63,471 bases of DNA, filler included, from Folioceros fuciformis (GCA_049999805.1; 10 parts of 10 records of this genome joined end to end with filler, not necessarily neighbours in it); one strand, 5' to 3'; counted from the first letter of the whole stretch, positions 31,623 to 58,199 are shown. Notes: a model not told the origin generated them from the sequence alone. Numbers and translations are program-made.

Positions 31623-32149
31623 NNNNNNNNNNNNNNNNNNNNNNNNNNNNNNNNNNNNNNNNNNNNTTAATTAATTAANNNNNNNNNNNNNNNNNNNNNN
31701 NNNNNNNNNNNNNNNNNNNNNNTACTCGCCTAACCCTAATACACTTATTATTTAATACAATTATTATTTGAAGGGTAAGCGAATCCTCATCCAACACCCC
31801 CACTTGAGCTTAGCCCTAATTTGAACATGGCAATTACGCTCCGGCTTGTGTCTTTACTCCGGCGGCTGCTCCATTCTTGTGAAACTTGATCTGCTTACCT
31901 CCGAGTTTAGGGTTATGGGTGCTGCACTGCAATTGGATTGTCCGCCGCCGCACTCGGCCACTGCTGCGCTGCTCTTTAAGACAATTAGGGCTGAGGCCAC
32001 TCTTTCATTCTCGACTTCACAGCTGTTAAGCTTGGCCCAGCGCCGCCTCTTGCCTACAGGTACTCCGCATGGATGCGTTCTGGACTGCAAGGGCAACAAT
32101 TTGGCTCCGCTCAGTGACTAGTATCCAGCAGCTCGCAGTCTTTCTTTGT

Positions 32150-34594
32150 TCAGGGATTGCAGGCAGTCAGGCCTAGTCTTCTTGCATGTTTGATATGCAG
32201 CTCTTTAGACAGGGCCTTTGTGAGTAGATCGGCTGGGTTCTCTACTGTTGAGATGTAGGTCACAATTATTTGTCCATCCGCCACCACTTCTCTTATAAAG
32301 TGGTGATGGATTTCTATGTGCTTCGTCTTTGAGTGGAATACCGGGTTCTTTGTAAGCGCTATGGCGCCTTGATTATCACAGTACACCACTGTTGCATCTT
32401 TTTGGACGACCTCAACGTCAGATAAGTTCCTTCTTACCCAGATTACTTCCTTTGCTACAACCGTCAATGCTTTGTACTCAGCCTTAGTGCTTGATGTGGA
32501 AACTGTTCCCTGTTTCTTGCTCGACCAAGAAATTGGTCCTCCAGCTAGCATCAGTACGTATGCTGACAGTGACTTCCGATTGTTCAGGTCAGAGGCCCAG
32601 TCCGAGTCGGTAAATCCTTCAAGAATCAGGTTCTTTCCTTCTGTGCCTGAATAAACAATCCCTTCAGTAGATGTGTTCTTGAGGTATCTGAACGTGCGTT
32701 TGACTTGGCTCCAGTGCTCAGGGCATGGATTTTCAAGAAACTGTGACTCAAGACTGACAGCATATGCAATATCCGGCCTTGTCACGTTTGCCAGATATAT
32801 GAGAGTGCCTACAGCATGCCTATACGGAATCTTGGCCATCTCTGCAGAATCTTCAGGTATTAAAGGTTCCTGTACCATTGTCAGCTTCAGTCCCGTTGCC
32901 AGAGGTGTTGCACACCCATTTGCCTCAGCCAGATTGAAACGCTTCAGACCTTCTCTAATGTACTTTTCCTGGCAAATTGACAATCTCCTGGCTGCTCTAT
33001 CCCTTGCAATCTCTATGCCTAAACACCACGTGAGCTCTCCCAGCTCAGTCATCTCGAACTCACGCTTTAGAAGTGCTTTCACTTTGCTCATCAAGCTGCT
33101 CTTTCCCTTGGTGGCGGCCAACACAAGATCATCTACGTACAGCAGTAAGATCAGAAAGCTCTCTCCTTCTCTCAACATGTACAGTCCATGATCAGCCGTC
33201 CCCTGCTTGAAGCCTAGCTTCTTCAGGTATGCGTCAATTCGATGGTTCCATGCTCTTGGACTCTGCTTGAGTCCGTACAGGGTCTTGTTTAATTTACAAA
33301 CTAGGTGATCTTTGCCTGGTTGCACATAACCCTCTGGCTGTTGCATGTAGATTTCTTCTTGCAGCTCACCATGCAGAAAAGCCGTCTTTACGTCCATTTG
33401 CTCGAGGTCCAAATCCAGGTGGGCTGCCAGTGCAAGCACCATCCTCAAAGTTGTGAATTTGACAACTGGAGCAAATGTCTCATTGAAGTCTACACCTGGT
33501 ACTTGAGAAAAGCCACGAGCGACAAGTCGTGCCTTGTAGCGTTCTATACTACCATCAGCCTTCTTTTTCAGTTTGAAGACCCATTTGCAGGAAATGGGTT
33601 TCCTATCTCTCGGTAGTTCCACAAGTGACCAGGTACCATTTTTCATGATGGAAGCATATTCATCATCCACGGCCTTCTTCCACTGCTTTGATTCTGATCC
33701 TGTGAATGCTTGTTTTGCAGAGCGTGAAGACAGCCGTGTGGCTTCTTCCTGCAGCATCGCACTAACCACTCCGTTGAATGTTAGCGGTTCTGCGTCCAAT
33801 TTCAAGGCCTTGGCTATCCTGTCCTCCACCTTCGCCATGGCCTGTTGACCAGTGACGAAGGGGCCATAACTTGGTGGTAAGGAACTCAATAATCTACAGG
33901 CTGCTTCGTAGTCTGTGATCTTCGTTCCCGTTGAACTTAGTTTTGCACGGGCAATCCTAAATCTTGCTATGTAGTGTTCAACTGTCTCCCCTTCCGCCAT
34001 TCGCAAGCTGTGATATTTCACAGAGGCTGACATGGACGCCGCCATGTCATGGGAGGCAAACATCATAGCAAGATGGTTCCACATGTCACGTGCTGAGTCA
34101 CCTGGTCCATCTGATGCCTGACGCATCATCTCTGGAGCAAGACCTGACCTTATCAGGTTCCTTGCTCGAATGTCACCCAGCTTCCAAACAGCTAAGTCTG
34201 CTGAATCCTCCGCTGGTTTGGGTACGTCCCCAGTCACAAGTTCCCACAGATTTTTCTCCTCTAATGCGCCTTGCATCCTCATGACCCAAATATCGTACTC
34301 AGCCCCTGTGACCAGTCGGTCCTTTTCCTTGAACCTGCCGCTGGTCAGTGACTGTAACGCATTAATCATGTTATCTCGTGCTTTGTCATCTTCATCCATT
34401 CTGTTAGCTTTCCAAAACCAAGAATAATCTTCGTGTTCTTGGTTTGTGTTTACAGATGCACGTCCAGAGTCACCATCTGCAACCTCTTCCTCTGCGACCA
34501 CTGCTTCCTCAAAATCATCAAAGTCAATCAGCCCAACTTCTTGGGCTAAGTTCTTCAGCCATTCTGGAGTGGTATATGATCCTGGTCCACTCAT
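32150..34594 (-). CDS. Copia Gag fused in frame directly to RT-RNase H (814 aa; no zinc knuckle, protease or integrase)
   Basis: Gag/UBN2 segments (YDIWVMRMQGALEEKNLW, LLSSLPPSYGPFV) run via EEATRLSSRSAKQAFTGSESKQWKKAVDDEY into RT (RYKARLVARGFSQ, QMDVKTAFLHG, LYGLKQS, LLYVDDL) and RNase H (FTDSDWASD, HIEIHHHFIRE). Confidence 0.9.
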   Translation of the reverse strand: MSGPGSYTTPEWLKNLAQEVGLIDFDDFEEAVVAEEEVADGDSGRASVNTNQEHEDYSWFWKANRMDEDDKARDNMINALQSLTSGRFKEKDRLVTGAEYDIWVMRMQGALEEKNLWELVTGDVPKPAEDSADLAVWKLGDIRARNLIRSGLAPEMMRQASDGPGDSARDMWNHLAMMFASHDMAASMSASVKYHSLRMAEGETVEHYIARFRIARAKLSSTGTKITDYEAACRLLSSLPPSYGPFVTGQQAMAKVEDRIAKALKLDAEPLTFNGVVSAMLQEEATRLSSRSAKQAFTGSESKQWKKAVDDEYASIMKNGTWSLVELPRDRKPISCKWVFKLKKKADGSIERYKARLVARGFSQVPGVDFNETFAPVVKFTTLRMVLALAAHLDLDLEQMDVKTAFLHGELQEEIYMQQPEGYVQPGKDHLVCKLNKTLYGLKQSPRAWNHRIDAYLKKLGFKQGTADHGLYMLREGESFLILLLYVDDLVLAATKGKSSLMSKVKALLKREFEMTELGELTWCLGIEIARDRAARRLSICQEKYIREGLKRFNLAEANGCATPLATGLKLTMVQEPLIPEDSAEMAKIPYRHAVGTLIYLANVTRPDIAYAVSLESQFLENPCPEHWSQVKRTFRYLKNTSTEGIVYSGTEGKNLILEGFTDSDWASDLNNRKSLSAYVLMLAGGPISWSSKKQGTVSTSSTKAEYKALTVVAKEVIWVRRNLSDVEVVQKDATVVYCDNQGAIALTKNPVFHSKTKHIEIHHHFIREVVADGQIIVTYISTVENPADLLTKALSKELHIKHARRLGLTACNP

Positions 34595-34597
34595 GAA

Positions 34598-35131
34598 TCA
34601 GCAGCTACCAGCATTGGTGGACTCCACTGGCCTGGACTGGCACACAGCACACTTTGCCCGTCTATAATTTGAGACAATTGAACGGGTAAGTCTGTCACTT
34701 TCCTGCAACTGTGGATTTAACAAGATAAATAATTTGACATCTGTTTGTTGCAGGTGATCTTCAAATCGAGTTATCCGATCTGTGAGACTGTCTAACGTGG
34801 TAAGGATATGCTGTGTGCGACAAAGTGCAGTGCTGTTTATATTGTCTAGCCTTTGTGTAAGGTGCTGTATAGCAACGGTGAGTGTCTCCTCGCTATCTCT
34901 TGTGACTGGCTTAGGGTGCACAGATTCTGGTCCTTGGTGGCGTTGGAGCACGACCCTTCGATACTGATGAATGCTCGGGTTCGGAATGTGCAGGTTTGGG
35001 ATTCTATCTCTATGGGTACGTGTCTCTGTGTGTCTGCCTCTCCCAACAGGCAGGTTTGACACTTCGTAGGGTGGTACAGGCTGGAAGACTCGTCTTGAGT
35101 TCCCTCTATGACCACGGTGACGGTGTGCCAT
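34598..35131 (-). CDS. Extra ORF upstream of Copia gag (177 aa from the first ATG), unknown function
   Basis: Open ORF between PBS and gag. Its C-terminal heptad segment FEDHLQQTDVKLFILLNPQL resembles the equivalent ORF at 54025..54681. Confidence 0.55.
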   Translation of the reverse strand: MAHRHRGHRGNSRRVFQPVPPYEVSNLPVGRGRHTETRTHRDRIPNLHIPNPSIHQYRRVVLQRHQGPESVHPKPVTRDSEETLTVAIQHLTQRLDNINSTALCRTQHILTTLDSLTDRITRFEDHLQQTDVKLFILLNPQLQESDRLTRSIVSNYRRAKCAVCQSRPVESTNAGSC

Positions 35132-38100
35132 GCTAAGGTTCTGACAGTTCTCCCTCCGAGAGATCTTGGACCATCCTTGCTGCACGCCACCAACTGTACA
35201 CCCGCAAGCCAAATGCGCGCCTCAACGCCGCTCTACCAGCAGCGCCCAGAGCTCCCTGGAAGGTATGCTCTGGAATGAATCTTCCTATTTGTTCCAAGAT
35301 CGACGTACTTGAATTTTAACAACTTTCTTGCGCAATTTCAGGCATTTGCGTCTCTCCTGCGCCTTCGCACGACTGGCTGTCTAGGCGACCAGCTTGTAGA
35401 CCAGCGGCTCGAGCTCTGGTCCCACAAACTTCGCAAGGTAGAGCAACCAGCCACACTTGGCAGCAGGGGAATCCATCTTACTTCGGTTGTTTGTGCAGGG
35501 TGTTGAAACAATCTATTTGCATTCTGTCCTCCAGAGATTTGTGCTACTTGATAGAAAGCGGTTAGATTGTTTCAACGCCTGAACCAGGCTCTGATACCAT
35601 GTCGTTTATGAACAGCAAGTAGATTGTNNNNNNNNNNNNNNNNNNNNNNNNNNNNNNNNNNNNNNNNNNNNTTAATTAATTAANNNNNNNNNNNNNNNNN
35701 NNNNNNNNNNNNNNNNNNNNNNNNNNNGGGCTGGCACATATAAATTTCTTCTTGCAAAGAACCATTAAGAAAAGTTGTTTTAACATCTAGCTGATGAACT
35801 AAGAGGCCATAATGAGCAGATAAAGCCAGCAAAATCCTTATCGAAGTAGACTTTACAACTTGAGAAAAAGTCTCATTGTAATCAAGTCCTACTACCTGGC
35901 TGTATCCTTTCGCAACTAGCCTTGCTTTATAGCGACCTATGCTGCCATTAGTATTAAGCTTTTTCTTAAATACCCATTTACAAGCAATTGGCTTACGACC
36001 TTTAGGCAAAACCACTAACTTCCAAGTTTGGTTTGCTATGAGAGAATCGTATTCAGACTTAATGGCCTTTTCCATTTCCCAGCCTCAGGGCCTGTAATTG
36101 CTTCTTGATAAGTAGCGGGTTCAGAAATATCAAAATTTTGATCTGAAACTAGACTAGCTACAAAAGGTGGTTCAGACCATTCACTACGAGGTGGTCTATG
36201 GCGGCTAGATCTACGCAAAACTGGTTCAGGTGTAGGCTCAATTGGATCAAGTGTGGGCTCAGGATTAGACGAAAAAGGGTCAGTATCAAAAGAAACAACA
36301 ACAGGATCAACTTCCAAGGATTCATCAAAGGAGGGAACTGCAAAAGACTCATCTATTTGAGAAGAAACAGGTGCTGGAAAAGTACTAGGAAGATGAGCTT
36401 GTGCATTTGAACTAGATGTTGTAGCCCCCCCTGAAGCCGAGGAAGGTGAATCCGAAACATCATCAATATCAAAAATAGAAACATCAACATCAGCATCAGT
36501 ATTGTAATCAGCCAAATCATCCACGCCATTAATAGAAACAGTAGCATCAAAAGAAGTAGGATCCAAAGCAGCATCATGACGTCGGAGAAGAGCATTCTCA
36601 TGAAAAACAACACTCCGAGAAATGGAAACTTGCCGAGTACTTGGATCAAAAAGCTTATATCCTTTTACCTCGTCCGAATAGCCAATGAAAATGCGGCGAA
36701 CAGCTTTAGGATCAAGCTTACTCCGAAGTGCAGAAGGGATCAAGGCATATGCTGGTGCTCCAAAAATGCGTAGATGGGTGATCCTAGGCTTCTTCCCAGT
36801 CCAGCGCTCATAAGGGGTAACCAAACCAAGCTCCTTCGTAGGCAACCTGTTCTGCACATAATTAGCTGCCATAAGGGCTTCAGCCCAATATCCCCTAGTG
36901 AGGCCTGCAAATGCTAAGCTGGAAAGAGTAGCCTCTTGAAGGGTCCTGTTCTTGCGTTCGGCGAATGCATTCTGAGCTGGAGTATAAGGAACTGTAAATT
37001 GATGAAGAACTCCCTCTCCAGCACAAAATTCGGTGAAGGCATTACTTGTATACTCGCCTCCATTGTCAGTCCTGAGAATCTTTAGCTGATGACCTGTCTG
37101 ACGCTGAGCAGAAGCTAAATACGTTTGAAAACATGATAGGGCTTCACTCTTATGGGCAAGAACAAAAACTGTAGAATAGCGGCTCCATTCATCAATGAAA
37201 GTGATGAAATAAGATGCTCCACCAAAGGACATGGTCGACATGGGGCCACATATGTCACTATGGACAGTGTGAAGAAGACAAGGTGCTCTTGACAAGTTTT
37301 GGTCTTTGAAAGGTTGTGAAATTGCCTTGCTCAATTGACAGGAGTCACAAAAGGCTCTATTATCAAAAGAGAAAGACAAAGGATCTCTAAAAACGGAGTT
37401 ATTGACTAAAGTGAAAAGCCTATTAAAATTCACATGCCCTAATCGGCAATGCCAAAGTTGAGTAGGAGAGAGACCAGAAGCTTGGGTAACGTTAGCAGTA
37501 GCATGTGGACTATACAAGGTTCTCACATTCAAAAGATACAAATCATGGAAAGGTGTCCCTGTGAAAAGGTCAGTTCCAATGTTGTTGCCAATAACTGAAC
37601 AACCTGTATTGTCAAAACAAACTCTACAAGAGTGCTCCTCCGTGAGCTTCATAACTGACATGAGATTCTTGGTCATGGATGGGACAAACAACACATCTGA
37701 GATTGTAAGAGAGGAACTACTAGGAAGCTGTATCTTTACTGATCCTATACCCTTAATGGATAAACCACTGTCATCACCCAAAAGAACAAACTGGTGATGA
37801 GCTGGGTTAGCATCAAAAGCAGTGAAAGCATTCCTATCAAAACAAATGTGGCTAGTTGCCCCAGAGTCGAGGAACCACATGTCATTCTGGATCTGGATAG
37901 AAGATAAGCAAACTGCTAAGATGGCGGGTGGTTTGGGCAGACCTTTGGACGTGGCTACATTAGAAGCTGGAACGGAACTTGAACTTTCCTTCCGGGGCTC
38001 ACCAGCCCTTTTCTTCCTACAGTCCTTCTCAAAATGACCTGGTATCTTGCACCAATTGCAAGTAAAAGTATGCCGTTGAAGGTTGGGCTGTCGAGAGGTT

Positions 38101-38875
38101 GACGCTCCTCCTCGTACTGAGCCCCCACGTCCTCTGCCACGATTGCCTCCGCGTCCTCTAGAAGCAAACAAAACTCTGCTACCTTGTTGCATAGTAGGCT
38201 TGGACTTGTGAAGGCTCCTACGGCGTTCTTCAGCAATCAAAGCTCCAAATATCTGCTCCAACGTCACATTGGCGCCAGGTCCAGCTGCTTGAAGAGTTGC
38301 ATTCTGAGAACTGATAAACTGAGAATAACTATCAGGCAGGGATGCTAGAAAGGAAACAGCAGCTTGAAACTCAGTGAAGGTAGTCCCGCAATATGCAAGA
38401 GTCGCACGAGCTGTGCGAAATTTATTGATATAAGACTCAACAGTCTCATTATCCTTCATGCGAATATTGAAAAAATCCCGATGCGCTAAAACAAGGGAAA
38501 CAGAACTCTTATCTCTATAGATGAGTTTGAAGTTGTTCCAAACTGCTGCTGAAGTGTCAGCATCCATAGTGTGCGGCATCATGTTCCTGTCAAGGGATGC
38601 CAAAAGGATGGATCGGGCTCGCCTGTCCTTCCTTTGCCATGCAAGAATATCAGCAGCATTTGCATTGTTGGCATGTGTTGCTGGTTTTGGTTCTGTCCCG
38701 TCCACAACGGACATGAGCTCATGCTCCTCCAAAATCTGGGTCAGCCTCATCGCCCAGATGTGGTAATCATTACCATTAAAGCGATCCCTATCCTTGAATT
38801 CAATCTTCAAGGAACCTGGAGTGATCGCCATAGCTTGTGCAAAATTTGCAGCTTGACCAGTAGAAACTCCAACTC

Positions 38876-38982
38876 CAGCAGCAGGGTTGCCTGCTGTACC
38901 TGCAAGGGTGCTTGCGGAACCAGCAGGGTTGCCTGCTGTACCTGCAAGGGTGCTTGCGGAACCAGCAGGGTTGCCTGCTGTA
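38876..38982. repeat. 42-bp in-frame tandem repeat in the Gag N-terminus (TAGNPAGSASTLAG x2.5)
   Basis: cagcagggttgcctgctgtacctgcaagggtgcttgcggaac is repeated perfectly. Confidence 0.9.
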
Positions 38983-39219
38983 GGAGAAGGAACACTACCT
39001 AAGCCTGGCCTAGGCTGTGTGGGATTGCCCCAAAAATTTCTCAAATAGTCAAAAGAGGGAGATGTGCCTTGCTGTTCATCAATACCAGTTGTGGGATTGA
39101 CAACAGGTGAAGTAGGTTCCTCTTGCAACTCCAATCTACCAAGGTCCACATCTTCGCCTTCATTAAATTCGCCAGACGCTGATGAGGGCGAACCTGGCTG
39201 CATGTCCAATATTCAAATA

Positions 39220-39654: not shown

Positions 39655-41799
39655 CCGCGTCTCAGCATCATCAATTATAGCAACATTGACAACTTGCTGT
39701 GTCTTTCACACGCCGCAGGCCATGGCTCCAAGCAATCGTGATGAAGCACGAAAATCGAAGGCACTCCTGCCCAGCATGTGACACCGGCCGCGAGGCGCAT
39801 CCATCCACCGCCCGGCTACAAAACCTGGTTGTAAACACTCCGAAGTGGTGAAAATCAAAACTGGTCATGGCCGCAGTGGTGCCGACAGCGCCGCGATGGG
39901 GCTGCCTTCTGCTCCCCTGCGCGGCTCCAAATCAGCGTTATAATGTCCTGAATCCTCAGACCGTGAGCGCCTCAGAATTTGCAATCGATCTCAAACATCT
40001 ATGACGCTCCTGCCAAGAACTTCACACCGGGCCACGAAACGCCGCAATCCGTGTACCCTGCCAAACCAAAAAACTGCATCGCGGCAATAGGTTTGCTGGA
40101 AATCTGGATCAGGGTATGGCGCGCTTTGGTGCTGCGATCTCCATCCCTGCACGTGGAAAACATCTGGCATCTGATCGGGTGATCGGGTTATGTTAGCATC
40201 ACTGCCGCGATAGGGCTTGGAAGGCACAGGCGTGCAGATATCAGGCTGGCTTCTTCACCATCGTCTATCCACAGAAATCTTCACATCCAAAGAGCCTGTG
40301 GGTGCTCCCGACTTCAAACTGAACCTCAGAGAGCGCCAACCGGATTGCATGCTAGGCGTCCCTGGTGGACGATTTGATTCAGGGCGCGTGCGGCCATGGG
40401 GCTGTCATCTGCTCCCACTGCCCGGCTTCAAATTGCCATGTGAATCCCTCTTTTGTTGTACGCGCTTCAGGCCGCAGCATGCCGATGGGAAATCACAAGA
40501 CGAAATGCTGAGATCGCACGCTGCGGACTGGAATTATCGTTGCAGGCTGCCGTCTCTATCCCCTGCACAGTTTCGGGTTGTGCCTTCAGGCCGAGGCAGC
40601 CATCTACCTCCTCGCGATTCTCCACACTTCATAAAATTAATAAAATAGGCATGAAAGCCATGTTTCTAATCACAATTTCAAATCGGGCAAGTGAGTCAAA
40701 TCGATTGCCATGGCTCTGATACCATTTCGCGTTGTGTGGATTGTGGGAGAGAGAGCACGGGAGCGAGAGCGCACGAGGCACGAAGGGCAAAGGTAGTTAT
40801 CGTTATATCAAAAAAAGAATAAAAAAGAGTATATATGAGTATTTTAAAAGAGTAGTTTTAACTGATTATGAAACTACTAACCTAAACTAACATAATTTCC
40901 TTTACGTCTTGCCACCCGCCAGGTCCAACGCTGACCTAACAAGTTTAGGGTTTCTAACCTTCCAGGCCTCATAGCAACCGCATTACAAGTTGGTTGTTGT
41001 TGATTCTTGTACCAAACTGTTCATCTCAACAAGGCAAGTCAAATAGTATGCTTTTTGTGCAATTTGGAGCTCTTTTTAAGGACTGATTGCACCTGGAAGT
41101 TTCAGACAACCACTAAGGTTCTGCTCCTGCTGCACTTGCTTTGATTTTCAATCTGGCATCGCGTGTGAGCGAGGTCGTGTGCTGCAATCTCCATATGTGA
41201 GCTGGAGTTTTGCTGTGCTGTGTTCCTAAATCCTAGGGTAGACATAAAGAATTGTAGGTGCTGCAGCATGATCAGATCTAGAGTAGTTGTGCTTTTCTGT
41301 TTTGTGTTGGGAAGGCATCTAGGGTTCTCTAACAGGTGTGCTTGCATGCCACCTCTTGTTGGTGATTGGGCGTTTTGTGAGTGAATTGCCGCATGGGTTA
41401 TGCAACCCGAGGAGGCTAAGGGGAGCCCACGGTATCGTCGGAGATCTAGAGATGTCCTCGCCAGGGTTACACCTGTGCAAGGACGAGGAAGGAAGAGGAG
41501 AGCTGTGCATCCATCTTGGGAGGAGGAAGGTCAAGTAAACCAAGTTAAACCGGGTGTTGAAGATCAACAGTAGGCTAGAAGCTGGTCTCCTTTTGCAAAC
41601 TGGGCAGCCCCAGTTGTTCCAACAGCACCTGTGGGAAGTTAGGGTGGGGTGCTTAGTTGTCCTACTATTACTACTGCTGGAGAAGGAGCTCAAGGTCAAA
41701 CAAACCTCTCTAAGGAGTCAGATACTGGATCCATGGAGGGAGGAGCACCCTACAAGCAGGAGAGGTTTTCTAGCAGACCTGGGATGCAAACATTGTGAG

Positions 41800-44700
41800 A
41801 CTTCAGGCTGCACATCAATGCTATAATTAGTCGGGTAAAATTCAAGCATGGCATTGTGTACAACCATCAATATATGTTTGAGCAATTGTCAAACTACCTG
41901 GTAGATGACGCATTGGACCTCTATGAGCTGCATTAGGCAGAGCTTAGTTCAATTGTGGCCACACCCAATCCAATTTATCATAGCACGCTTCATATGGCCT
42001 ATAATGCCAAGTTGGCAGTGAAAGTTACAGCCCATTAGGCGACTATTGCTACAAGCATGATTCCTCCTACTATTTAGCCGCCATCAGTCACCTACCTCAC
42101 TCCAGCTGAGAGGGTGATGGCCACGCAGGGGATGGATGAGTACATTCACACCCCCAAGCATACCAACCCTATGCAGGATTTCCTAGACATAATGGAGAAG
42201 GCATTCCCGCTAAAGACCCCGGAGAAAATTGCAGAACATGCTGCTTTTGCTCGCAAGAAGGGGGAGACAGTCCAGATGTGTTTCAAAAGGCTTCAAAATC
42301 TGAGGGAAGGAATAGGAATGCTGACCAATCAAGAAGTAGCAAAGAAGTTTCTAACAGCCTTGGAGGGAGACCTATTGTTTCACTTTCAGCTCATCACAAC
42401 ATTGGTGGACAAGTATACCTTGGAGCAAGTGCACAAGGAGGCTGAGCGCAGGGAGATTGCTTTTTCAGCGTATGCCTCACGCCACTCTAAAGCATTTACC
42501 CATTACCAATCCATGTTCTCTACAAAGGGATTAGCTACAACTGGGTCTGGAGCCAAGCCATCGAAGGCCAAGCCTGTGAAGGCAGGAGAAGCTCTAGCCA
42601 CAGTTGCCTCTTTGTGCAACTACTGTCGCGGTCCTGAACATGTGAGTCCAGCTTGCAAATGCCCCTTGGAGGGCTTATACTATACACATTGCAAGAAGAA
42701 CAGGCATGTAGTTATAGTATGTTTTTAGAAGAACTTGGAGAGGCGGTATATGAAAAATGCGGGTAATGGGACAGGAACTACAGCAATCAAGGTAGGGGGT
42801 ACCGCTGTTACAGAAGCTGGTGCCAGTGCAGGGGTTTCACGCAGTTGACAGCAGAGGGACAAGGCCAAAGCTAAGGTTGCATTTAATGCAGATAAGGTGA
42901 CTTCATTGGAAGCCATTGTTGCAGCATTGTCTTCGCTGTTGGGTGCTCTTACAGCTAGTCTCAGCAGTGGAGCAAACTCACCCAAGCCGGCCAGTGTTGT
43001 TGAATTGGTCAAAGATGAGGGGGAGGAATACGGCTCACCACATCAGGCTTGCGTTGTCAATTGAATGGAGGTTGAGGTCATGGCAGTTGCAAAGCTTCCA
43101 CGTATTTGGGTAGGACAAAAATTGTCCACCCCAGTGCTGAAGATAGCAGTGGGACCAGTCACTTGGCAGCAAGGTGCCAAGGCAATCATGCCCCAATCGT
43201 TTGCACCATTGTCACCAAGGAGTGCCATTCCAGTCCAAGGGCAGGAGCACTCCACCTTGGTGGGAGGGCCATAGCCAGTGGACAGGCCTTCACTGCAGCC
43301 ACAGGTGGCAGCTAGACGTCCAATCTACTTGATGCCCAAGGCTTTCACTACGGAACAGCTATTCGGGAGATTAGTGGGCATTCCGCTGTTCTCATTGCAA
43401 GATGTAGGGCTTGGACCTGAGCATCTGCCCAAGGCATTGCAGCCGATGCCAGCAGCTACATTGTCTACAGCACTGTCTCATTGGCCACTAGCTCAGGAAG
43501 AGTGGGTGGTGCCTGGTAGCACCTCACATTGCACCAGGAGAACAGTACCAGCAGACGTGCTTGATGCAGTAGCACCTGGAGGACAACGTGCTCAACCAAT
43601 GAGCTCTTCAAGGATTCAGCCCACTAACCGCTTGGCAGTCAAAGTCGGCAATGCAATTGTTGACAATGATGCAGGGCACATCATGGTGAATGGGTATGCT
43701 CCGAGAGTGGTACTACTGGACATTGGTGCCAACCAGTGATTATTGGCAAAGCCTTACCAGCAAGGCTCAAGCTCAGTGGGTCAGCGCTCAAGAGCTCTCC
43801 TTGGAACATAAGGACGGCATCAGGAACCATCGAACCAATCTCGGGAGAGACTGTCCACCCTGTGGACATCACGCTCAAGCCTAGCACTCCAGATGCCATG
43901 ACACTAAGCTTTCCATGCTTGATGACAACAGCCATGAATTATGACGTGTTGTTGGGTCAAGAATTTCTATTTCCACTAGGCCTGAGTGTGGACAACTAGA
44001 CGGAGCAAGCGTACTATCGGCCAAACTCAAAGCAAGGTGGAAGGAGGGTAGCACACTTATCCTTACGGTTGTATGGCATGGCAAAGTCTAACACAGCCAC
44101 ACTTGTGGAACAGCAAGCATGTTCAGCAGGCCTGGACAACAGAGCAATTTTGTTGTCCAGCGACCATATGCATGATGACAATCACCTGGAGTCTGAGTAG
44201 GAGGAGCAGCACTATGACAACTATTCTAGCGACACCACAGTCACTTGCAGGATGGCAGATTTGGTCAAGGCTACCGATCACCCTACACAGGTTGAGAGCG
44301 TGCTGAAGGATGCCCATGAGCATGTTCAGCAGGTGCAAGCTATGTTGCAGTGGGGGCTCAAGGATCCCACATAGGAGCATGTTGTTAGTGCTCGAGTGAT
44401 TGCCTGGCCCATCTCAGTGCAAGACTTTTTCTGGTCGAGCTTTTTGGAGGTATTTGCACTAGCCTGGAGGCCTTGCTCAAAGCAGGCCTCCCTATTCGGC
44501 ATTCTGTATACTGCGATAGTAGTGGGGAAGCACAGTAGATGGCTGCTCATCGTTTACAGGAGCTCTGTAGCAGGTTTCCCACACAACTGCCAGAGTTAGC
44601 ATTGGCTGCCACATTTGCAGCATTGCCTCCAAATATCATGTACATCCAATAAGGCCATATCCAAGCTTTGGGACCCATTGACGTGTTGATTGCTGGTTGG

Positions 44701-47700
44701 GAATGCCAAGGGTTCTCACAAGCAGGAGTGGGAGCTGGGTTGGAGGACCAACGCACTAGGTTGTTCCGAGACTTGCACCAAATCTTGGCATGGGTGCAGC
44801 AGGAGAACCCACGGTGTGGCTCCCGTCTCGAGAACACTCCAGCGCAGCTTGACAAAAGGGACTCTACCCGTGAGGACATGGCTGTTGTGCAGTACCATAT
44901 TGGTGTTCCCTTTCGTATGGATGCCATCCAAGTGGGCAGCTATGCGCAGAGGCTACGCAACTACTGGACCAACCTCATCCCTGGTTCAGTCTTGGAGCTT
45001 GCTCTTCGCAACACGAAGCGGGATCTCACTTTGCAGCTACCAGATGTATTGGACGCAGACCATGAGCCTAGACCCGTGCTTGCCACTGAGCGACCACCCT
45101 GGCATCCCACCAATACACCTGGTCAGCCTCGCAAGACCTTACCCACCTTGGTGAGCTTTCCAGGCTCCTTTGCTTATCACGGCAGCGGCGTTGGACTGCT
45201 GTACAACACCAGTACCAAGCAATGGGAAGAGCCCCACATTGAGGAGCGTGAGTAGATCATGGGCTTTCCAGCTCATGCCACTGCAGCACCCAAGGTCACA
45301 GTCTCACAACGTTGTGCTGCTGTTGGTCGAGCTATGGACCTGCATGCGGTCACCTGGCTTGTGAGCCTATGTTTGGCATTTCAACTGCTGATTAGAGGCA
45401 CTGTCGCTAGTTTTGTTGCTACGATTTGTCTAGTAGATGTCGTGCACCTATCGTTCCCTGGCTTAACTTGCCTACCTTTCAGGCTTGATGCAAGAGGAGG
45501 GGGGGGAGTATGCTGCTTGGCACCATTCTGCTTTTTCTGCCTCAACCTTCAAGGTAGGTTTGAGCTAAAAGTCATCAGCCAAAATGCCACTTACTGCTGG
45601 AACATTCAACTGGCGCATGGGGCCACAACTTATAGATGAGTAGCAGAGGTAGATCCGAGCGTTGATCTTCAAGTACAGCGACTGGTTTGCATTCTCCATG
45701 AAGGAGTTGAAGCGGTGCAACGTCACAACCTTCAAGATCAACCTTACCAGCTTAGAACCCATGTATTGCAAGAGGTATCGGTTAAGTCAATTTGAGTGGG
45801 AGATGGTGGACGCCACGTACAAGGAGCTTTTTGAGGCAGGGCTGATCAGACCTTCTATCTCTAATTACGCTACCGCGACTATCATGCCACCCAAGAAGGA
45901 CAGCCAGGGCTTATGGGTAGAAAAGAGGATGTGTGGTGACTACCGACCTATCAACGTTGTGACAGCTCAGGACAGATATCCTATGCCCACCCCGAAGGAC
46001 ATATTTGACAGCATTGGCAGGTCTGCCTACTTTCCATACCGATCCTCAGGCAAGGGTTCAATCAAGTGCCGGTTGCACCAGAGGACGTCAAGAAGACGGC
46101 CTTTCACGAATCATAGCAGCTGTGGGAATGGCTGGTGTTGCTGTTTGGCTTGAGGAATGCACCGGTCACGTTCTAGAGAGTGATGGACATAGTGCTAGCT
46201 AGTTCGGCAAACCTATTATGCTACATAGATGATGTCCTTGTGCATAGTGTGGATTTTGAATCCCACTTGGATCACTTAGAGGACTTGTTCCAGCGGTTGG
46301 GGAAGGCCCAACTTACATGCCATCCAGCCAAATGCGAATTTGGCATGGATACCGTGGCTTATCTAGGGCATAGGGTGGTTCCTAATGGTGTCATGCCGCA
46401 CCCAGCAAAGGTGCAGGCCATATTATAGGTCAAGGAACCCACCAATGTGTCTATCTTGCGAGCATTCCTTGGCTTATGCAACTACTTTTGGATATACATC
46501 CAAAACTTCAGTCGCATTGCTAGGCCACTTAATGACCTGCTTAGAAAGGATGTGGTCTGGACTTGGACTGAGGGAACACAGGAGGTGTTTGACACTCTGA
46601 AGGCTAGGTTGACTTCTGCACCCGTGATGACTAGCCTGATTTGAAGAAGCCGTTCGTTGTACACACAAACTGGAGCAGCTTGGGCCTAGGGGTAGTATTA
46701 GCTCAGCATGATGAAGACGGGAAGGAGAGGGTGATAGCTTATGCATCTCTCAGCAACAACAAGGCGGGGGCTAATTACAGCAGCTATGAGGGTGAGTGCC
46801 TCGCTGTTGTTTGGGCAGTTTGCCATTTTCGGCCTTACCTTTATGGCCAAACATTTACGCTAGTAACAGATCACCACCCTCTCGAGTAGCTCATGGCCAA
46901 CACGAAGTTAAGTGGCAAGCTGGCTCGCTAGGCCATGATCCTCCGGGATAACAATTTTCAGGTGGTCCACAGGCCAAGTCTGACGCATCAGAATGCAGAC
47001 TCTCTGTCTAGGAATCTAGACAGCAGCTGTCAAGGCATGACTAAAGCAAGGTAGGACTATGAGCCTTATGTGCCATTTCCAGTCCCTGCCCTGGTGGCCA
47101 GGGTATGTGTAGGCAGTAGTAGCACGGCTGCACCTACTTGATTGGCAAAGGACATATGGGAGGATCCCCACACTGCAATACCTGCAAACTGGATAGCTGA
47201 ATGAAGCACTGCCACCAGCAACAGCTAAGCAGGTCAAGCATCGTGTTGCCACATATTACTGGCGAGATGGCTATGTAATGAGAAAGCTGGTACATGGAGT
47301 GGAGCGCTTGGTGCCACCACCAGCTGATAGAGATATGTTGATTAGCAAAGTGCACAAGGACATGGGCCACTTCCGAGTCAAGCGCATGGGTTGAGGCTAT
47401 CACGCTGCTGGATAAAACATCCAGAAGCACCTCCCAAGCTTTCTTGCAGAATGTGCTCAATCATTTCGGTAGCTGTGCCGAATGCTTGACCACCCAGGAG
47501 TCGAAATTTCGAGGTGAATTCCAGGACTTGCTGGATGCGGCCCTGATCGACCACCGCAGGACAAGCCGAGACCACCCCTCGGCAGATGGTCTCGTTGACT
47601 GGATGGTCCAAACCATCAAGAAGGGCTTGAGGAAGCTCTATCTGCAGATGCCCAAGATGAAGTGGGACTTGGCTTTGCCATATATCGTCATGAGGTACAG

Positions 47701-48247
47701 GATGAGTAAGCATGCTTCCTTAGTACACTTCTCACCATACTTCCTGCTCTTCGGTCGTGAGCCCCTGCCACCCAGCACTATTGCTAAACAGCTGTAGCAA
47801 GTGGTGGATTTGGATAGTCTAGCTGTATGGGCTAAGGTCGTTGGAGAGAGGGCTGCCTTGTTCAAACAGGTAATGCCTATGACTATGGCAAATCTACACA
47901 TAGCACAGCACATGGACACTCTTAGGTATGCCTACACAAAGAGTGGGAGTTTTAGGGCGAAGCTTAAGAAGTTTCAATTTGGAGATTTTGTGTATCTGCA
48001 ACGGCAGACTGGTGACACACTGGACACCAGCACCAGTTGCCATGTGTGAAGAATCGGGAGGTCAGGCCTAACTGCTGCTGTAGGGGGCTGATGGGAGAAC
48101 CATTACAACTCACACCAAAAACTATGCTCCCTACCACCTTCCTAACTTGGATCCCACAATCGTAACAATTAATTGGGTACCTCCTGATGAGAATCAATAG
48201 CTCTCAGATAGGAAAGAAAACAACGGAATCAATTAATGAGTAAAGTA
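41800..48247 (+). mobile_element. Degenerate Ty3/Gypsy retrotransposon: gag - protease - C5 DNA methyltransferase - RT - RNase H - integrase
   Basis: Gag with CNYCRGPEHVSPAC (42114..42728); protease VVLLDIGA (~43710) and YDVLLGQEFL; RT KRMCGDYRPIN and CYIDDVLV (45662-46428); RNase H GLGVVLAQ...[16 protein letters not shown]...TDHHPL (46641..46889); integrase HPSADGLV and FSPYFLLFGREP (47444..47797). Many stops and frameshifts; integrase appears to carry an internal deletion near 47385. Confidence 0.92.
44401..45375 (+). pseudogene. Cytosine-5 DNA methyltransferase domain (DNMT3-like motifs) embedded in the Gypsy pol
   Basis: One reading frame carries motif I LVELFGGIC (44431), motif IV IDVLIAGWECQGFSQAG (Cys at 44704), RTRLFRDL, motif VI LEN, motif VIII AQRLRNYWTNL, TLPTL, motif IX EERE*IMGFP and motif X QRCAAVGRAMD. 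In-frame stops at 44536, 44650 and 45253. Confidence 0.9.
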
Positions 48248-50950: not shown

Positions 50951-51226
50951 TCATTCATCAATAAAACAACGATGAAAAGTATGACCACACATAGTAAGCT
51001 TTCTTACTTCTTGTCCTCCCTCCAACATCCAAAGACATATACAACACTCCTCATCAACCTCCATAACCTTCTTATACAAGGTGAATGGAATATTTTCCTC
51101 CAATTTAACCATGTCTAGTTGCACTTGTTTCAATTTAGTTTTACGAACTTGTTGATCAAGTATTTCCCTCTGCCTATTAATTATCTTGGAGTATGACATG
51201 AATCTATCTTCAAATAGATACTTCAA
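50951..51226 (-). pseudogene. Degenerate RING-H2 zinc-finger gene fragment
   Basis: EECCICLWMLEGGQEVRKLTMCGHTFHRCFIDE* matches the RING-H2 consensus. The conserved W is TGA, and the last CxxC is not intact. Confidence 0.7.
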
Positions 51227-52069
51227 ACATGTTGTAAAATATCATAGAATATATATGAATTCTATGAGACACATAAATCTTGCTATTGTAGACAATCCAA
51301 ATAATGGATGGTCATCATAATGATCTAGGACGCGGTAGCTTACGCCCCAAGACATTGTAATATGGAATTCTTGTAAAAAATTTTATTTACCACAAAATAT
51401 CGTGAATTAAGAGGAGCCTCTCCAATCTAAGCAACTAAGAATTATAAACCTTTAATAATCATATTGTCAAGCATGTAGAGATGCTTGATCATGCAATAAA
51501 TATATAAATTATTTTGTTTATTATAATGGGCAAACTATGTGCCCAAACTAAATATAAATTCAAACCAAATTCTGGTTGATGCTGCTTATTTCATATGCCC
51601 TCTCTTTGTAAAGAGGGCTACTAGAGAATTTTGCCTTGTGGCAATTGGAGAGACTTGCCTTGTATCAAGTAGAGGGATGCTAGAACATGAAATTGATGTA
51701 TGTTCTATCTCAACATACTCACATACTCAAATTCATGTTCTTCATGCATAAGGTATAGTGTGTAAGCCACAAAGGAAGATTGCATAGGAAGACTTGGCAG
51801 TGTTAATAGGTCCGCTAGCATGGCACAAGGCCTAGTCCACTTTACAGTTGCAAAGGGATCCCAGCCATTGGTAGAGACCTTCGAAACAATATGCAACAAA
51901 GTGCCCTTAGCTCTCCTTGCTCAATCCTATCCCATGTATTACGTACTATTTGTTGGTATATAAGATTCCCCACAAAATATCAAGGGGAGACCAAATCACC
52001 CTCTACATTCATCTCAACTAGTCTCTTCAACAAGGTCCACTAAATATGGTATGGAAGACCCTTTGGATC

Positions 52070-53473: not shown

Positions 53474-56400
53474 AGCTATTTAGATAACATATATATCTTA
53501 GGTCTATACATGGTTTAAGTTAAATACCTCTTCATTAGGGTTACGACTCTTAGCGAAAAGACACATCCCAATTTTATTTTAACTTCTTTTCTCGATCATC
53601 AATTCATGTTTTTTTTAACAAAATCTGCATTATCCTTATAAAATTGTCATGGTATCAGAGCTGTGATGATGCAGGTTGCATTCTAGAGAATGCACATAAA
53701 ATTGTGCACCTTAGGATGCGCACAAACATGCGTTTTTGGTTGTTTTATGTTTAAGAATGTTTTCTTGAAATGAAACCAAAAACAAAATCAAGAACTTAAG
53801 TTTTCTGGTTGTTTCTTTATTTGCTTATTTACAATTTGTTAATTTGCAGATCTAGTAGCTGTATTCTAGTGCAATTCTATTCAGATTGTTTTTCAAAAAC
53901 AATTCTGATAGAACTACACTAGAACACCTGCTAGATAGTGCAAATTACTATGTAAATAGAGAAATAATAATGAACATAATGCATAAAATTAGCATTCTTA
54001 CAACCAAATTACAAGCCATCACAGATGGCACAGAACGAGGGCCAGATGTGGCAGCCTCGACCTGCTGAGCGCATCAACCTGCGCAGTCGATCTCTCAGGG
54101 GACCCTTAAATGACAGAAATGTTGCTGATCGCCTGCACCGGCAGACACAAGAGTGGACGTTGAGAAATCAGGACCGGCCTGCCCACTGCACTCGACTGCG
54201 GGAGGCTTACAATTTCTTGGTTTCTACCCTCTATCCTTACTACCAGCAACTGTTTGTTGATCCCCGTGAGCAGGCAGCAGAAGCCAATCATCTGGAGCCG
54301 CGCCTCAGACCCGCCCTGGACGTGCATGGAAACCCTAATGGTTTCCTAACAACTCAGCCTGCACCACCAGCCACAGTTTCACAGATCATTTCCAGAATAG
54401 AATTACATGCCCTGTTTGTTGACAGGCGCTACGTAAATCTGAACAAAAGCATTGCAGGCGTGAGTGTGGACTTACAGGATCTGAGGGAGCAACTTTACCA
54501 CTTGGATTACAAAATCCATGTTTTGCTGAAACCTGAGTTGCTCAAAACCCTGAATCTCGCACTTTTGCAACAAGATCAATTAAGTGCACTAGTGGAAATC
54601 AGCGTTTTGATGATCCTAACTCCTGTCCATCATGTGCAACCTACACATACAGTAGGTTCACAATTAGGAAGGAACAGATAGCAGAAAAGGAGGCACAACA
54701 ATCAGCTAGCTTACATGAGGTTATCAGACCTGTCAACATGCTAGCTGCCCTCCTGTAGATCTGTCCTTGGTAGTAGCCAGTAGCCTCATCACCTCTGTAT
54801 ACCTCCCGCAATGGGAGACACAGCTTCCTCATCAGTTGTTGGAGGAGGAGAAAGCTTTAAAGAAAAAGACAGATTCGACGGTCGTCAGTATGACATATGG
54901 GTAATGCGCATGAAAGGCGCACTCCAGAGCAGAAAACTCTGGAACACCACAACAGGGTCAGACTTGCCAGAAGAAGGAGAAACTTCACAGCAAAGGGAGG
55001 CACGACAACTCAGAAATGAGTTTGCCATGTACCTCATCAGGAGCGGCCTCACAGCAGATATGATGCGACAAACTGCTGGCTGTAAGACAGCAGAAGAGAT
55101 CTGGGGTCGTCTTGAAGAATTGTATGCTGGAAAGAACTCCGCAAATCAGCTGTCAGCCCTTAGCAACCTTCAGCAATGCAAGATGCGTGAAGGAGAATCT
55201 GTAGAAAAACATGTCATGACATTCAGAACATTAGTCTCAAAGCTAGAAAATGCTACTGGCGAGACAATTAAGGACGAGATGCTAACACTCTATTTGTTGC
55301 TCTCCTTACCCCCATCCTGGTCACACTTTGTGACATCCATTCATGCATCCCAGTTGCAGGTAGCCAAGCTAGCTAAGTCAGCTGGTCTTAAGGTACCAGA
55401 ATTAACATTCGCAGAGCTTGTTGGGTCCCTCCTAGAAGAGGAGGCGACCAGAGGAGGACTAGGCAGGCGTGCTGGCAAGCAGCAAGCGCTGTTTACATCC
55501 AACCGTGGGCGAGGTGGCGCAAGGCCATACTCCAGAGGCGGTGGATCTAGTTCGTCCCGAGGTGGTGGCTCGCAAGGAGGCCACTCAACACAGTCTGCGC
55601 AGAAGAAGAGTAAGAAACCAGGGGTGTGCAATTGGTGCAAAATCCCTGGACACTGGGAACGAGAATGCAGAAAAAAGCAAGCTGGCTTACCTCGCAAGGA
55701 GGGAAACGCTGAGACCAACATTGTGGTCAAGAAGCAGCCATCGCCATCAGCCCTTATGGTTGAGACAGGGCAGTATCTAAACTCTGTCCCTGCACCCACA
55801 TGTCTGTCAGCAAAAACAAGTGCTAAACAATTTACAGAGTGGTACTTAGACACAGGTGCCACTGCTCACATGTGTTTTGATAGAAACGCATTTCAGACTT
55901 ACAGGTCAGTAAAGGACCAGTTCGTCTATCTTGGTGATAATAGATCACTTGTCTCTCCAGGCATAGGAACAGTACAGCTGCCTGTGCCATCTGGAGTTAT
56001 CTTGTCACTCTTAGACGTGTATTATGTACCTGAGATGACACGAAATCTCATCTCCGTTAGGCGACTGAACATAGACAATAACAGTCACATACTTTTCACA
56101 CATACAGAGTGTAAGGTGATAGATGCTTTTAATCCTAGCAAGGTTTTAGCTTATGGGTCTTCAGAACATGACCTGTTTCGTCTTCACAGCTCCAGAGGTG
56201 CAGTTCAGTCCCATCTGACACATGAGGACTCCCAAGCCTCTACACAACAGATAGCCAAATCTAAGTTGTGGCATGCTAGATTAGGTCACCCACACAGCAG
56301 CAAGTTACAGAAGATAGCCGTAAGTGATCTCTATGCAGATGGCCCTATAGGCAAATTAGTGCCTTTACCTCTTTGTGAACCTTGTGTTCTTGCTAAGCAC

Positions 56401-58099
56401 CATCAAGCAGCTTTCAGAAATAAAGCTCCTCATAGGGCATCTGAAGTCTTGGAGTTGGTGCACACAGACTTATGTGGCCCCTTGTCAAAGCCTTCTCTCG
56501 GTGGTGGGAGATACTTCCTTACCTTTACAGACGACAAAACCCGTTTTGTTAGTGCCTATATCCTCAAGGCCAAGAGTGAATGCTTTTCACATTTCAAAGC
56601 TTACTTGAAGTTTGCAGAACGCTGGACAGGGAAGCAGCTGAAAACCCTGCGTTCAGATAACGGTGGGGAATTTACCTCACATGACTTTCAGACCTTCTGT
56701 ACAGATGAAGGAATTGCCAGGCAGCTTACAGTTGTTTACACACCTCAACAGAACGGGGTGGCTGAGCATATGAATCTTACTCTGCAGGAGATGACATCTT
56801 CCTTGTTGAATCATGCTCACCTCCCCCTGTCCTACTGGGCAGAAGCCCTTACAACCTCTGTCTACCTAAGGAATAGGTTGCCTACTAGTGCTGTTGAAGG
56901 GATGACTCCCTATGAAGCCTTCTATGGACACAAGCCCAAGATCCTGCATTTGAGGACTTTTGGTTGTGTTGCGTATGCCTTCGTCCCCAGGGAGAAGCGC
57001 AAGAAGCTGTTTAACAAAGCCCAGAAATTGCTGATGTTAGGTTACACTGAAGGCATCAAGGCATATAAGCTATATGATGTGCCAGCCAATCATGTCATCT
57101 ACTCCAGGAGCGTTACCTTTGATGAAAATCGTTTCTGGCCAGTGGGAGCTTCAGACAATTATGCTCTCGAGGATGACAGTTGGGAACATCTTGAACATGA
57201 TGTATCATACTTTGAGGATCTTCCTGAGGATGTTGCTCCTGCAGGTGGGGAACAAGAGGATCCACCAGCACCTGATTTTGAACCTGACATGGCACGCGTT
57301 ATACCAGTTTTTGGGGATGCTGTTGATCCAGTACAGCAGCCACATCCTCTCGATCCTTTACCTCTTGATGTGGACTCAAATGTGGAGGACGCAGTAGCTG
57401 AAGTTGAAGCTGGTGATGCTGACCAGGTAGCTCATGACAACTCGGCACCTCTGCAGCCAGCACTCCCTGCTGCTCAACCTGAACGACGCTACCCACAGCG
57501 TGAAAGACATCCTCCAGATTTTTATCAGTCACATGATTTTCGGACAGCACATGTCACCTCTGTATTGCTGGATCCTATAGAGCCATAGTCATATGAGGAG
57601 GCACTTAGTCGACCTGATGCTGCTGAATGGAAAAAGGCCATACAGTCAGAATATGACTCTTTGATTAAAAATGGAACTTGGGAGCTAGCCAAGTTACCTC
57701 CAGGCCGTAAAATGGTCTCATGTAAATGGATTTTCAAACTCAAAGTGAAAGCTGATCGTACCTTTGACAGGTATAAAGCTAGACTCGTAGCCCGAGGATT
57801 TTCACAAGTACCAGGACTAGATTACCTGGAAACCTTCGCTCCAGTTGTGAAGATGGCAACTTTTCGTATCCTCTGTGCTGTTGCAGCCCACAAAGACTAT
57901 GAGTTAGAAATGTTTGATGTTAAAACAGCATTCCTATATGGGAAATTAGACACAGAGATATATATGCAGCAGCCTCCAGGTTATGAAGTGAAAGGCAAGG
58001 AGGACCATGTCCTCAAGCTAATCAAAACTCTGTATGGGCTCAAGCAATCAGCTAAGGAATGGAACGCAGTCCTAGATGAGGAGCTGCGTGTTCTAGGTT
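53474..58099 (+). mobile_element. Ty1/Copia element C: partial 5' LTR, PBS, extra 5' ORF, gag-pol with one in-frame stop; truncated in RT
   Basis: The LTR ends in CA at 53649, followed by PBS TGGTATCAGAGC at 53650-53661. ORF 54811..57588 has Gag, CNWCKIPGHWEREC, WYLDTGATAH, WHARLGH, HTDLCGP and LRSDNGGEF. After TAG 57586-57588 the RT continues in the same frame (RYKARLVARGFSQ, FDVKTAFLYG, LYGLKQS). Confidence 0.94.
54025..54681 (+). CDS. Extra ORF upstream of Copia C gag (218 aa), unknown function
   Basis: ATG-initiated open ORF between PBS and gag. LREQLYHLDYKIHVLLKPEL aligns with FEDHLQQTDVKLFILLNPQL of element A. Confidence 0.6.
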   Translation: MAQNEGQMWQPRPAERINLRSRSLRGPLNDRNVADRLHRQTQEWTLRNQDRPAHCTRLREAYNFLVSTLYPYYQQLFVDPREQAAEANHLEPRLRPALDVHGNPNGFLTTQPAPPATVSQIISRIELHALFVDRRYVNLNKSIAGVSVDLQDLREQLYHLDYKIHVLLKPELLKTLNLALLQQDQLSALVEISVLMILTPVHHVQPTHTVGSQLGRNR

Positions 58100-58199
58100 N
58101 NNNNNNNNNNNNNNNNNNNNNNNNNNNNNNNNNNNNNNNNNNNTTAATTAATTAANNNNNNNNNNNNNNNNNNNNNNNNNNNNNNNNNNNNNNNNNNNN

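Follow-up and report, generated by a model that had tools for sequence, protein, structure and literature searches.

The closest described relatives of the locus reported here are retrotransposons that carry their own cytosine-5 DNA methyltransferase (DNMT). In its passages on such elements, the study of de Mendoza et al. 2018 (PMC5890265) describes intron-less, DNMT3-related DNMTs in the Pol open reading frame (ORF) of a gypsy element of Klebsormidium nitens, KnitGypsy-Dnmt3, with conserved key residues and purifying selection (Ka/Ks < 0.2), and for gypsy elements Klebsormidium is the one alga named in the literature consulted. They also report that the domains of SymbioDIRS-Dnmt3, from Symbiodinium, gave de novo CG methylation in a yeast assay, and methylation of the cDNA after reverse transcription is put forward there among other ideas. 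Later texts, in the portions bearing on the subject, report such elements 'in streptophytes and dinoflagellates' (a 2025 MBE paper) and name 'streptophytes (Gypsy-DNMT3)' (a 2026 preprint); the passages of PMC11982613 and PMC9033089 found by term search do not mention them. In the literature searched we found no report of a DNMT-carrying retrotransposon in a land plant, and the supplementary species lists could hold some. Here we describe an element within a 63,471-nt stretch of DNA (the window; filler included, 10 records joined end to end) from the Folioceros fuciformis assembly GCA_049999805.1. The element, at 41760-48161 on the plus strand, is very probably an old, inactivated copy of a Ty3/gypsy long terminal repeat (LTR) retrotransposon belonging to the streptophyte 'Gypsy-DNMT3' lineage.

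A first-pass annotation of the window had proposed a gypsy retrotransposon encoding its own DNMT between the protease (PR) and the reverse transcriptase (RT). Its reading of the domain was borne out, since each of the six motif strings that it quoted was located, in the translation of 44302-45639, at its place within 44431-45339, in one frame and in the order I-IV-VI-VIII-IX-X, which can be read directly and is unpermuted, unlike that of DRM enzymes. The frame is continuous from 44425 to 45516, up to which point the homology to relatives extends past the domain itself; it is unbroken by intron or frameshift and contains three in-frame stops only, in agreement with the earlier statement that the domain is intron-less. 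The catalytic Cys, the Glu of motif VI, the FGG of motif I, the R-x-R of motif VIII, and motifs IX and X are all retained, and the motif VI Glu is the sole invariant column in the alignment of relatives. The window's own read-through translation scored 26.4 bits against the Pfam family PF00145 (curated cut-off 22; E = 5.7e-6), so that the HMM search suggested for the region 44401-45375 gave a match above the cut-off, and relatives scored 24.8-58.4 bits with the same model.

The nearest enzymes of known structure are those of the DNMT3 group. With the single sequence as query, the PDB chains at the top of the ranking were those of DNMT3C, 3A, and 3B (E = 8.6e-5 to 1e-3). A profile built from 15 family members gave E-values of 2.7e-23 to about 1e-21 for DNMT3A, 3C, and 3B, compared with 2e-13 to 2e-11 for DRM, about 2e-9 for M.HhaI, and about 1e-6 for DNMT2. 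The DRM chains align to profile positions 113-242 only, and no DNMT1-named chain occurs among the 57 distinct PDB sequences that the family profile matched at E <= 0.01. An AlphaFold model of the domain, computed with the family alignment, had a pLDDT of 86.7 and a pTM of 0.87, and a Foldseek search with this model placed DNMT3C, 3A, and 3B at the top (E about 3e-17, TM 0.71/0.81); among the Foldseek matches listed (32 chains, ranks 1-49 with gaps), every chain was a DNMT3C, A, or B. Ranking by PDB profile and ranking by predicted fold thus agree with the DNMT3-type label given in the first pass, and the putative domain is confirmed by both as a DNMT3-type cytosine-5 methyltransferase. The catalytic domains of host DNMT3A, 3B, and 3C (PDB 2qrv, 8tci, and 6u8p, among others), which are its best matches in sequence and in fold, share with it the unpermuted motif order, motif VIII, and the Gly-Arg of motif X. 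In contrast to them, the window domain lacks PWWP and ADD, is embedded in a retroelement polyprotein, has Glu-Cys in place of Pro-Cys, and is only 17-20% identical in structural alignments.

The domain is part of an element with the order gag(zf-CCHC)-protease-DNMT-RT-RNase H (RH)-integrase (INT), which was established by collinear homology to relatives on the same strand (Table 1). As had been proposed, the DNMT lies on the strand of pol and between the protease homology (43611-44077) and the start of RT at about 45575-45686. Residues 474-514 of the related protein P0146 matched the protease region in frame 0, and residues 514-629 did so in frame 2, when tblastn was used; the protease-matched part of P0146 and of another relative, P0002, corresponds to PF13975/PF13650, and a zf-CCHC motif is present at the gag position in relatives. 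In one alignment of the region, the window row follows a single frame through the frameshift and carries no meaning beyond about 43730, and the remaining rows alone were used. Pfam detected RVT_1 (PF00078, E = 4.4e-20) in the RT of the window, and RT_RNaseH (PF17917, E = 3.7e-32) and RT_RNaseH_2 (E = 2.1e-23) in its RNase H. The integrase was traced by tblastn with P0011 (residues 1324-1396 and 1477-1686) and P0017 (residues 1686-1715), and also with P0292 and P0319.

Table 1. Coordinates of the parts of the DNMT-carrying gypsy element in the window
Feature	Coordinates	Strand	Remarks
Degenerate gag region	41760..43412	+	frame 0; tblastn P0010 residues 11-593 (25.8% identity), P0146 4-369 (4 in-frame stops)
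Aspartyl protease region	43611..44077	+	split by frameshift near 43730; 41-49% identity, 1 stop
DNMT3-type C5 cytosine methyltransferase domain (predicted), pseudogenised	44425..45381	+	frame mod3=1
Motif I (AdoMet binding) LVELFGGIC	44431..44457	+	aligns with ELFGGI of relatives
In-frame TAG stop within DNMT domain	44536..44538	+	
In-frame TAA stop within DNMT domain	44650..44652	+	
Motif IV AGWECQGFS	44692..44718	+	catalytic Cys kept, Glu replaces canonical Pro
Motif VI RLENT (ENV-type Glu)	44824..44838	+	read in frame, aligned to relatives
Motif VIII RLRNYWTN	44950..44973	+	aligns with AHRARYFWGN of DNMT3 chains
Motif IX ERE*IMGFP (asterisk, stop)	45244..45270	+	aligns with EMERVFGFP of DNMT3A
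In-frame TAG stop inside motif IX of DNMT domain	45253..45255	+	
Motif X VGRAMD	45322..45339	+	Gly-Arg as in DNMT3 'GRSWSV' stretch
Linker end and reverse transcriptase	45575..46632	+	begins in frame 2 and passes to frame 1; 5 in-frame stops; tblastn P0146/P0292/L008 ORF
RNase H, Ty3/gypsy type	46635..47180	+	frame 0, 4 in-frame stops; tblastn P0292 1662-1846
Integrase (zinc-binding part, then core)	47167..48161	+	two frames, 2 in-frame stops

The copy in the window is a fossil. Its homologous segments (41760-48161) contain 19 in-frame stops and seven frame changes (frames 0, 2, 1, 2, 1, 0, 1, 2), a heavy degradation of the whole element that the first-pass annotation had not mentioned, and the open gag-pol frame that an autonomous retrotransposon requires is absent. 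Neither a repeat finder nor a BLASTN self-comparison down to word size 7 detected LTRs or any other pair of direct or inverted repeats flanking the element; these were likely lost through decay or through truncation by neighbouring Copia insertions. The observed/expected CpG ratio is 0.37 in the element versus 0.54 in the window. Because of the three stops in the DNMT, the 19 stops and seven frame changes overall, and the lack of LTRs, the copy cannot act, and the earlier suggestion that the window domain could methylate the element's own cDNA or insertion site does not hold for this dead copy.

Comparison with the published elements places the locus in a known group. Like KnitGypsy-Dnmt3 as described in the 2018 passages, the window has a DNMT3-related, intron-less, and unpermuted domain inside a gypsy Pol polyprotein. 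The K. nitens protein GAQ93235.1 (partial), which presumably is a published KnitGypsy-Dnmt3 copy, has the same order of zf-CCHC, protease, and then DNA_methylase, and in the DNMT tree it lies with the window on one side of the main split. The window domain differs from it in being 35% identical, in belonging to a different subclade, and in having Glu-Cys rather than Pro-Cys; in addition, the passages ascribe a DIRS-like repeat arrangement to KnitGypsy-Dnmt3, whereas the window element is without detectable terminal repeats. SymbioDIRS-Dnmt3 also holds a DNMT3-type domain in a retrotransposon Pol; by its description in the same passages, it is a DIRS element with a tyrosine recombinase and an independent dinoflagellate acquisition, and it is set apart from the window on these grounds. 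The claim that the window holds a novel system was therefore not upheld, given that its architecture and phylogenetic lineage are those of the K. nitens element type of 2018, and the accompanying remark that DNMT-retrotransposons were already known in dinoflagellates and Klebsormidium agrees with what those passages state.

Relatives of the window DNMT were collected by several searches. In a word-indexed search, 8000 scored candidates yielded eight matches of about the same length, and 7383 yielded 14 longer ones. The best match, annotated in the liverwort Calypogeia fissa, was the protein P0002 (52% identity, E = 5.9e-73), which is encoded on a 66.6-Mb contig and consists, by Pfam, of protease and DNA_methylase. 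The second best was the cluster P0010/P0146 (48-49% identity), in which P0146 is one open frame of 1315 amino acids (aa) that covers gag, protease, DNMT, and linker and reaches into the beginning of RT. An exhaustive profile search yielded 11529 representatives at E <= 1e-3, 1853 at E <= 1e-10, and 512 at E <= 1e-30, the last number (clusters at 50% identity) being our measure of the size of the lineage in public data; the 150 best matches listed were all family members, with E-values of 1.2e-83 or lower. A scan of viral contigs found no relative.

Two fixed architectures emerged when 196 retrieved proteins were sorted by domain queries, at least one of which was matched by 192 proteins. In 17 proteins (type A), the DNMT follows the protease and/or precedes RT, as in the window, while in 116 proteins (type B) it is located after RT-RNase H and before the integrase, usually with a PHD finger thereafter; a further 49 showed a DNMT only and 10 had no DNMT match. 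Unbroken type A ORFs are found in P0292 and P0319 (2188 and 2327 aa, respectively), both of which have zf-CCHC, protease, DNMT, RT, RNase H, and integrase, and additional full-length type A frames are P0324 and P0021 of Closterium NIES-54. A metagenomic locus, L008, has an 847-aa DNMT-RT-RNase H ORF. The unbroken PR-DNMT-RT frame that the first-pass annotation had advised looking for is thus present in relatives (P0292, P0146, and P0021), and its view that the domain was captured into the gypsy polyprotein between PR and RT is supported by the same order in these ORFs and in L008.

One could envisage that the DNMT stretch is instead a piece of a host DNMT3 gene, or the product of a single transduction, situated by chance in a decayed gypsy element, given that PR-DNMT-RT cannot be read as one frame in the window, where one change of frame occurs in the interval 44077-44425 and another in 45516-45575. 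In the unbroken ORFs of relatives, however, the order is identical and the linkers flanking the DNMT are homologous, the homology of P0146 to the window is collinear from PR through DNMT to RT, and neither introns nor the PWWP and ADD of host DNMT3 are present. Furthermore, the domain is held constantly in related copies. When metagenome contigs were scanned with P0146, 344 stretches were matched; relatives are encoded by 301 of them, and 80 loci were retained (L001-L080). The DNMT domain is held in 79 of these 80 loci, and the remaining contig stops short of the domain region. We therefore consider a host fragment or a one-off insertion to be highly improbable, and the domain is best regarded as a constant component of the gypsy polyprotein.

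Type B elements share much with the window. In the Scenedesmus protein KAF8056149.1 (annotated 'pol'), in P0005 of Chlamydomonas eustigma, and in P0011 and P0017, the DNMT is homologous to that of the window over its full length (33-38% identity), has the GW(E/P)CQ, AHRLRNYWTN, and ERER-GY/F motifs, and is accompanied by gypsy-type RT, RH, and INT. They differ from the window in the position of the DNMT between RNase H and integrase, in the PHD finger after the integrase, and in motif IV, which ends in CQDLS and not CQG-S. No description of the RT-RNase H-DNMT-integrase-PHD architecture was found in the literature searched. The named hosts of type B are chlorophytes (C. eustigma and Scenedesmus sp. 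PABB004), and those of type A are K. nitens, Closterium NIES-53/54/65/68, and C. fissa, so that the two architectures split, among few named hosts, into streptophytes and chlorophytes.

The separation of the two types was also seen in trees, which were unrooted with respect to host enzymes. A FastTree analysis of 165 DNMT domains united 13 type A rows and 13 rows of unassigned architecture in a 26-row set with a support of 97 and no type B row. In an IQ-TREE analysis of 50 rows (28 from the A side and 22 of type B, hand-picked from the larger tree), A (PR-DNMT-RT) and B (RH-DNMT-INT) were split at 97/95, and the window joined (Calypogeia + (L008 + P0146)) at 95/87; K. nitens and Closterium formed other A subclades, with GAQ93235.1 on the window's side of the 97/95 split. 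The RT tree (36 rows, with 25 of the 59 B rows drawn at random and two long-branched outgroups) grouped the window RT with L008/L045 (97) and outside B, which again was a clade (100). One of the outgroups in the RT tree was a second gypsy-type RT/RNase H region of the window, at 59835-61190 on the minus strand, which is without DNMT homology. The closest relatives of the window (Calypogeia P0002, P0146/P0010, and L001-L080) share with it the PR-DNMT(-RT) order, AGWECQGFS, and the Gly-Arg of motif X. The window nevertheless represents a different subfamily and host from P0146 and L001-L080, and it lacks the long open frames kept in P0146 and L008.

These relationships bear on the host, which we judged from the sequence itself. 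The relatives of the element, together with the plant-type Copia elements around it, suggest that the host is probably an embryophyte, most plausibly a bryophyte. Alternatively, the contig could derive from a streptophyte alga or from algal contamination, and the window would then only add an algal member to the lineage described from Klebsormidium; consistent with this, all named PR-DNMT-RT members apart from Calypogeia are charophytes (K. nitens and Closterium NIES-53/54/65/68), and a Copia polyprotein at 36036-39212 is without a close named relative (best identity 43%; angiosperm Copias 27-44% locally and about 30% over most of the query). The window DNMT, however, is 35% identical to that of K. 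nitens, which is not the host, and 30-35% identical to those of Closterium, compared with 52% to the liverwort and 48% to P0146; it groups with the Calypogeia-containing clade, and the 63-kb window is densely filled with the remains of plant-type Copia elements and is low in CpG. Trees of transposable elements need not follow those of their hosts, which makes this evidence on the host weak and suggestive; we consider an algal source possible but somewhat doubtful, and favour a land plant. Whatever the source of the window, the 52%-identical C. fissa record lends independent support to the extension of the lineage to embryophytes.

We next turn to the condition of the DNMT in related copies. 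Of the 79 copies, 67 had 300 or more DNMT codons, and for these we computed pairwise dN/dS (ratio of nonsynonymous to synonymous substitution rates) by the Nei-Gojobori method, after removal of stop codons and of pairs whose dS did not exceed 0.05. The median was 0.39 for the DNMT (2195 pairs), 0.48 for the linker (1575 pairs), and 0.35 for RT-RNase H (735 pairs), each taken over pairs that are not independent. In the intact relatives, the DNMT is under purifying selection about as strong as that on RT. The value below 1 that the first-pass annotation had asked about was thus obtained for the related metagenome family, which is not the window's own, and it agrees with the Ka/Ks < 0.2 given for KnitGypsy-Dnmt3 in the passages of PMC5890265. 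Nearly all metagenome copies are decayed, having 0-10 stops in the high-scoring segment pairs of the DNMT, mostly without a frameshift; only 14 frames of at least 400 aa occur in the 80 loci, the longest being that of L008. Their DNA is 63-68% identical to the window, in RT/INT only. We also observed that the DNMT frame of L001-L080 is mostly free of indels and yet holds up to 10 in-frame stops per copy. In related copies, 363 of 554 stop codons are a single C>T or G>A step away from the column majority. Decay by cytosine deamination was considered but is not proposed here, as private substitutions showed no C>T excess (C>T 9%, G>A 11% of 735).

Several observations weigh against the interpretation of the locus as an LTR retrotransposon with a DNMT3-type enzyme of its own. 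Pfam found no gag (42078-42728) and no protease on the window's own translations, and both were assigned by homology only. No LTRs, primer-binding site (PBS), or target-site duplication was found, leaving the ends undefined, and the term LTR retrotransposon derives from the protein domains alone. The window's family is represented by one copy, and the copies compared all come from other genomes. Some of the loci used for dN/dS, the pairs of which are not independent, are possibly the same sequence assembled twice. The DNMT tree was made without a host DNMT3/DRM outgroup, and the label 'DNMT3-type' comes from the ranking of PDB sequences and folds. Motif IV of the window reads Trp-Glu-Cys and departs from the Pro-Cys consensus. 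Finally, according to the passages of PMC5890265, KnitGypsy-Dnmt3 gave no methylation in yeast, a result that the authors called inconclusive in view of the failure of human DNMT3B in the same assay.

The last two points deserve separate consideration. The consensus of motif IV in cytosine-5 methyltransferases is a Pro-Cys dipeptide. Glu-Cys is common to Calypogeia, Closterium, and many type B proteins, and is found in most relatives of both architectures, while Pro-Cys is kept in K. nitens (AGFPCQGFS) and in a minority of both types. The Glu-for-Pro replacement next to the catalytic Cys might be relevant to the failure of the single activity test made on the lineage. It could further be argued from this replacement, and from the absence of methylation de novo by KnitGypsy-Dnmt3 in yeast, that the domain has ceased to methylate cytosine in DNA, being either a pseudo-enzyme or an enzyme acting on RNA or RNA-DNA hybrids, and is kept for binding or for a structural role within Pol. 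We regard this as unlikely in view of the retained catalytic Cys, motif VI Glu, FGG, R-x-R, and motifs IX and X, and of the dN/dS of the DNMT; the yeast result is itself inconclusive, and it was obtained with an element of K. nitens, which has the canonical Pro-Cys. Moreover, a Dnmt2 homologue with a non-consensus residue in motif IV is active on tRNA, as stated in a passage of PMC3526270. We lean towards the view that the domain may still be a DNA methyltransferase in intact members.

If so, the following course seems the most likely for intact relatives, in which the DNMT is made within a single Gag-Pol polyprotein. The enzyme would be set free, or would travel with Pol in the particle, and would then act on the new cDNA of the element or on DNA at the integration site; the resulting methylation state of the new copy may favour its survival or lower its cost to the host.

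The remainder of the window is largely a transposon graveyard, and the neighbours of the element on both sides are of the Copia type. Long open frames are present in Copia-type elements at 32150-35221 (minus strand), 36036-39212 (minus strand), and 53980-58155 (plus strand), with RVT_2, Retrotran_gag_2, rve, and other domains; the second of these holds a 1058-aa frame that is Copia-type by its relatives (best database identity 43%). A motif that we take to be the tRNA-iMet-type PBS has exact matches at 35588, 40713, and 50087 on the minus strand and at 53650 on the plus strand. These matches were considered as part of the DNMT element and were assigned instead to the neighbouring Copia elements; a scan of the window with the presumed motif gave seven matches at <= 2 mismatches, compared with 6.3 expected by chance. 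An Rfam scan of the window found nothing.

Other features of the window were noted in passing. The residues E, L, A, K, S, and Q abound in a stop-free frame of 2514 aa at 7493-15037 (minus strand), which has long coiled-coil-like internal repeats and no Pfam match and may represent a host gene of very large size with a single exon; its 5' end enters an N run (15 X in the translation). A long, degenerate, satellite-like tandem array with a strong excess of A and G on the plus strand occupies 19500-23450, and is bracketed at some distance by a 271-nt direct repeat pair (15094-15364 and 27216-27486; 97.4% identity), candidate LTRs of a 12-kb element. A 2-kb stretch at 30001-32000 has a G+C content of 24.8% compared with a window average of about 46%. 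A short frame at 50951-51241 (minus strand) has by eye a RING-H2-like Cys/His pattern (CCICL...CGHTFH) and is possibly an exon of a host gene.

The window copy itself, being a fossil, adds little. What goes beyond the literature searched is that the lineage occurs in at least one chromosome-scale liverwort assembly and is large in public data, that it has two architectures, and that Glu-Cys is conserved in it, and intact candidates for an activity test are at hand in the L008 ORF and P0292. Taken together, the results leave room for a tentative joint reading, one that we hold with some reserve: that the host belongs to the land plants and is probably a bryophyte, that the DNMT3-gypsy elements are of old descent and span the entire green line, and that the conserved Glu-Cys points to an altered or as yet undescribed activity long kept by selection. 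In keeping with this reading, the named hosts of PR-DNMT-RT elements are streptophytes, now including an embryophyte, and those of RH-DNMT-INT-PHD elements are chlorophytes. Transposons carrying the enzyme that normally serves to silence them are a remarkable turn in the contest of genomes with their parasites.

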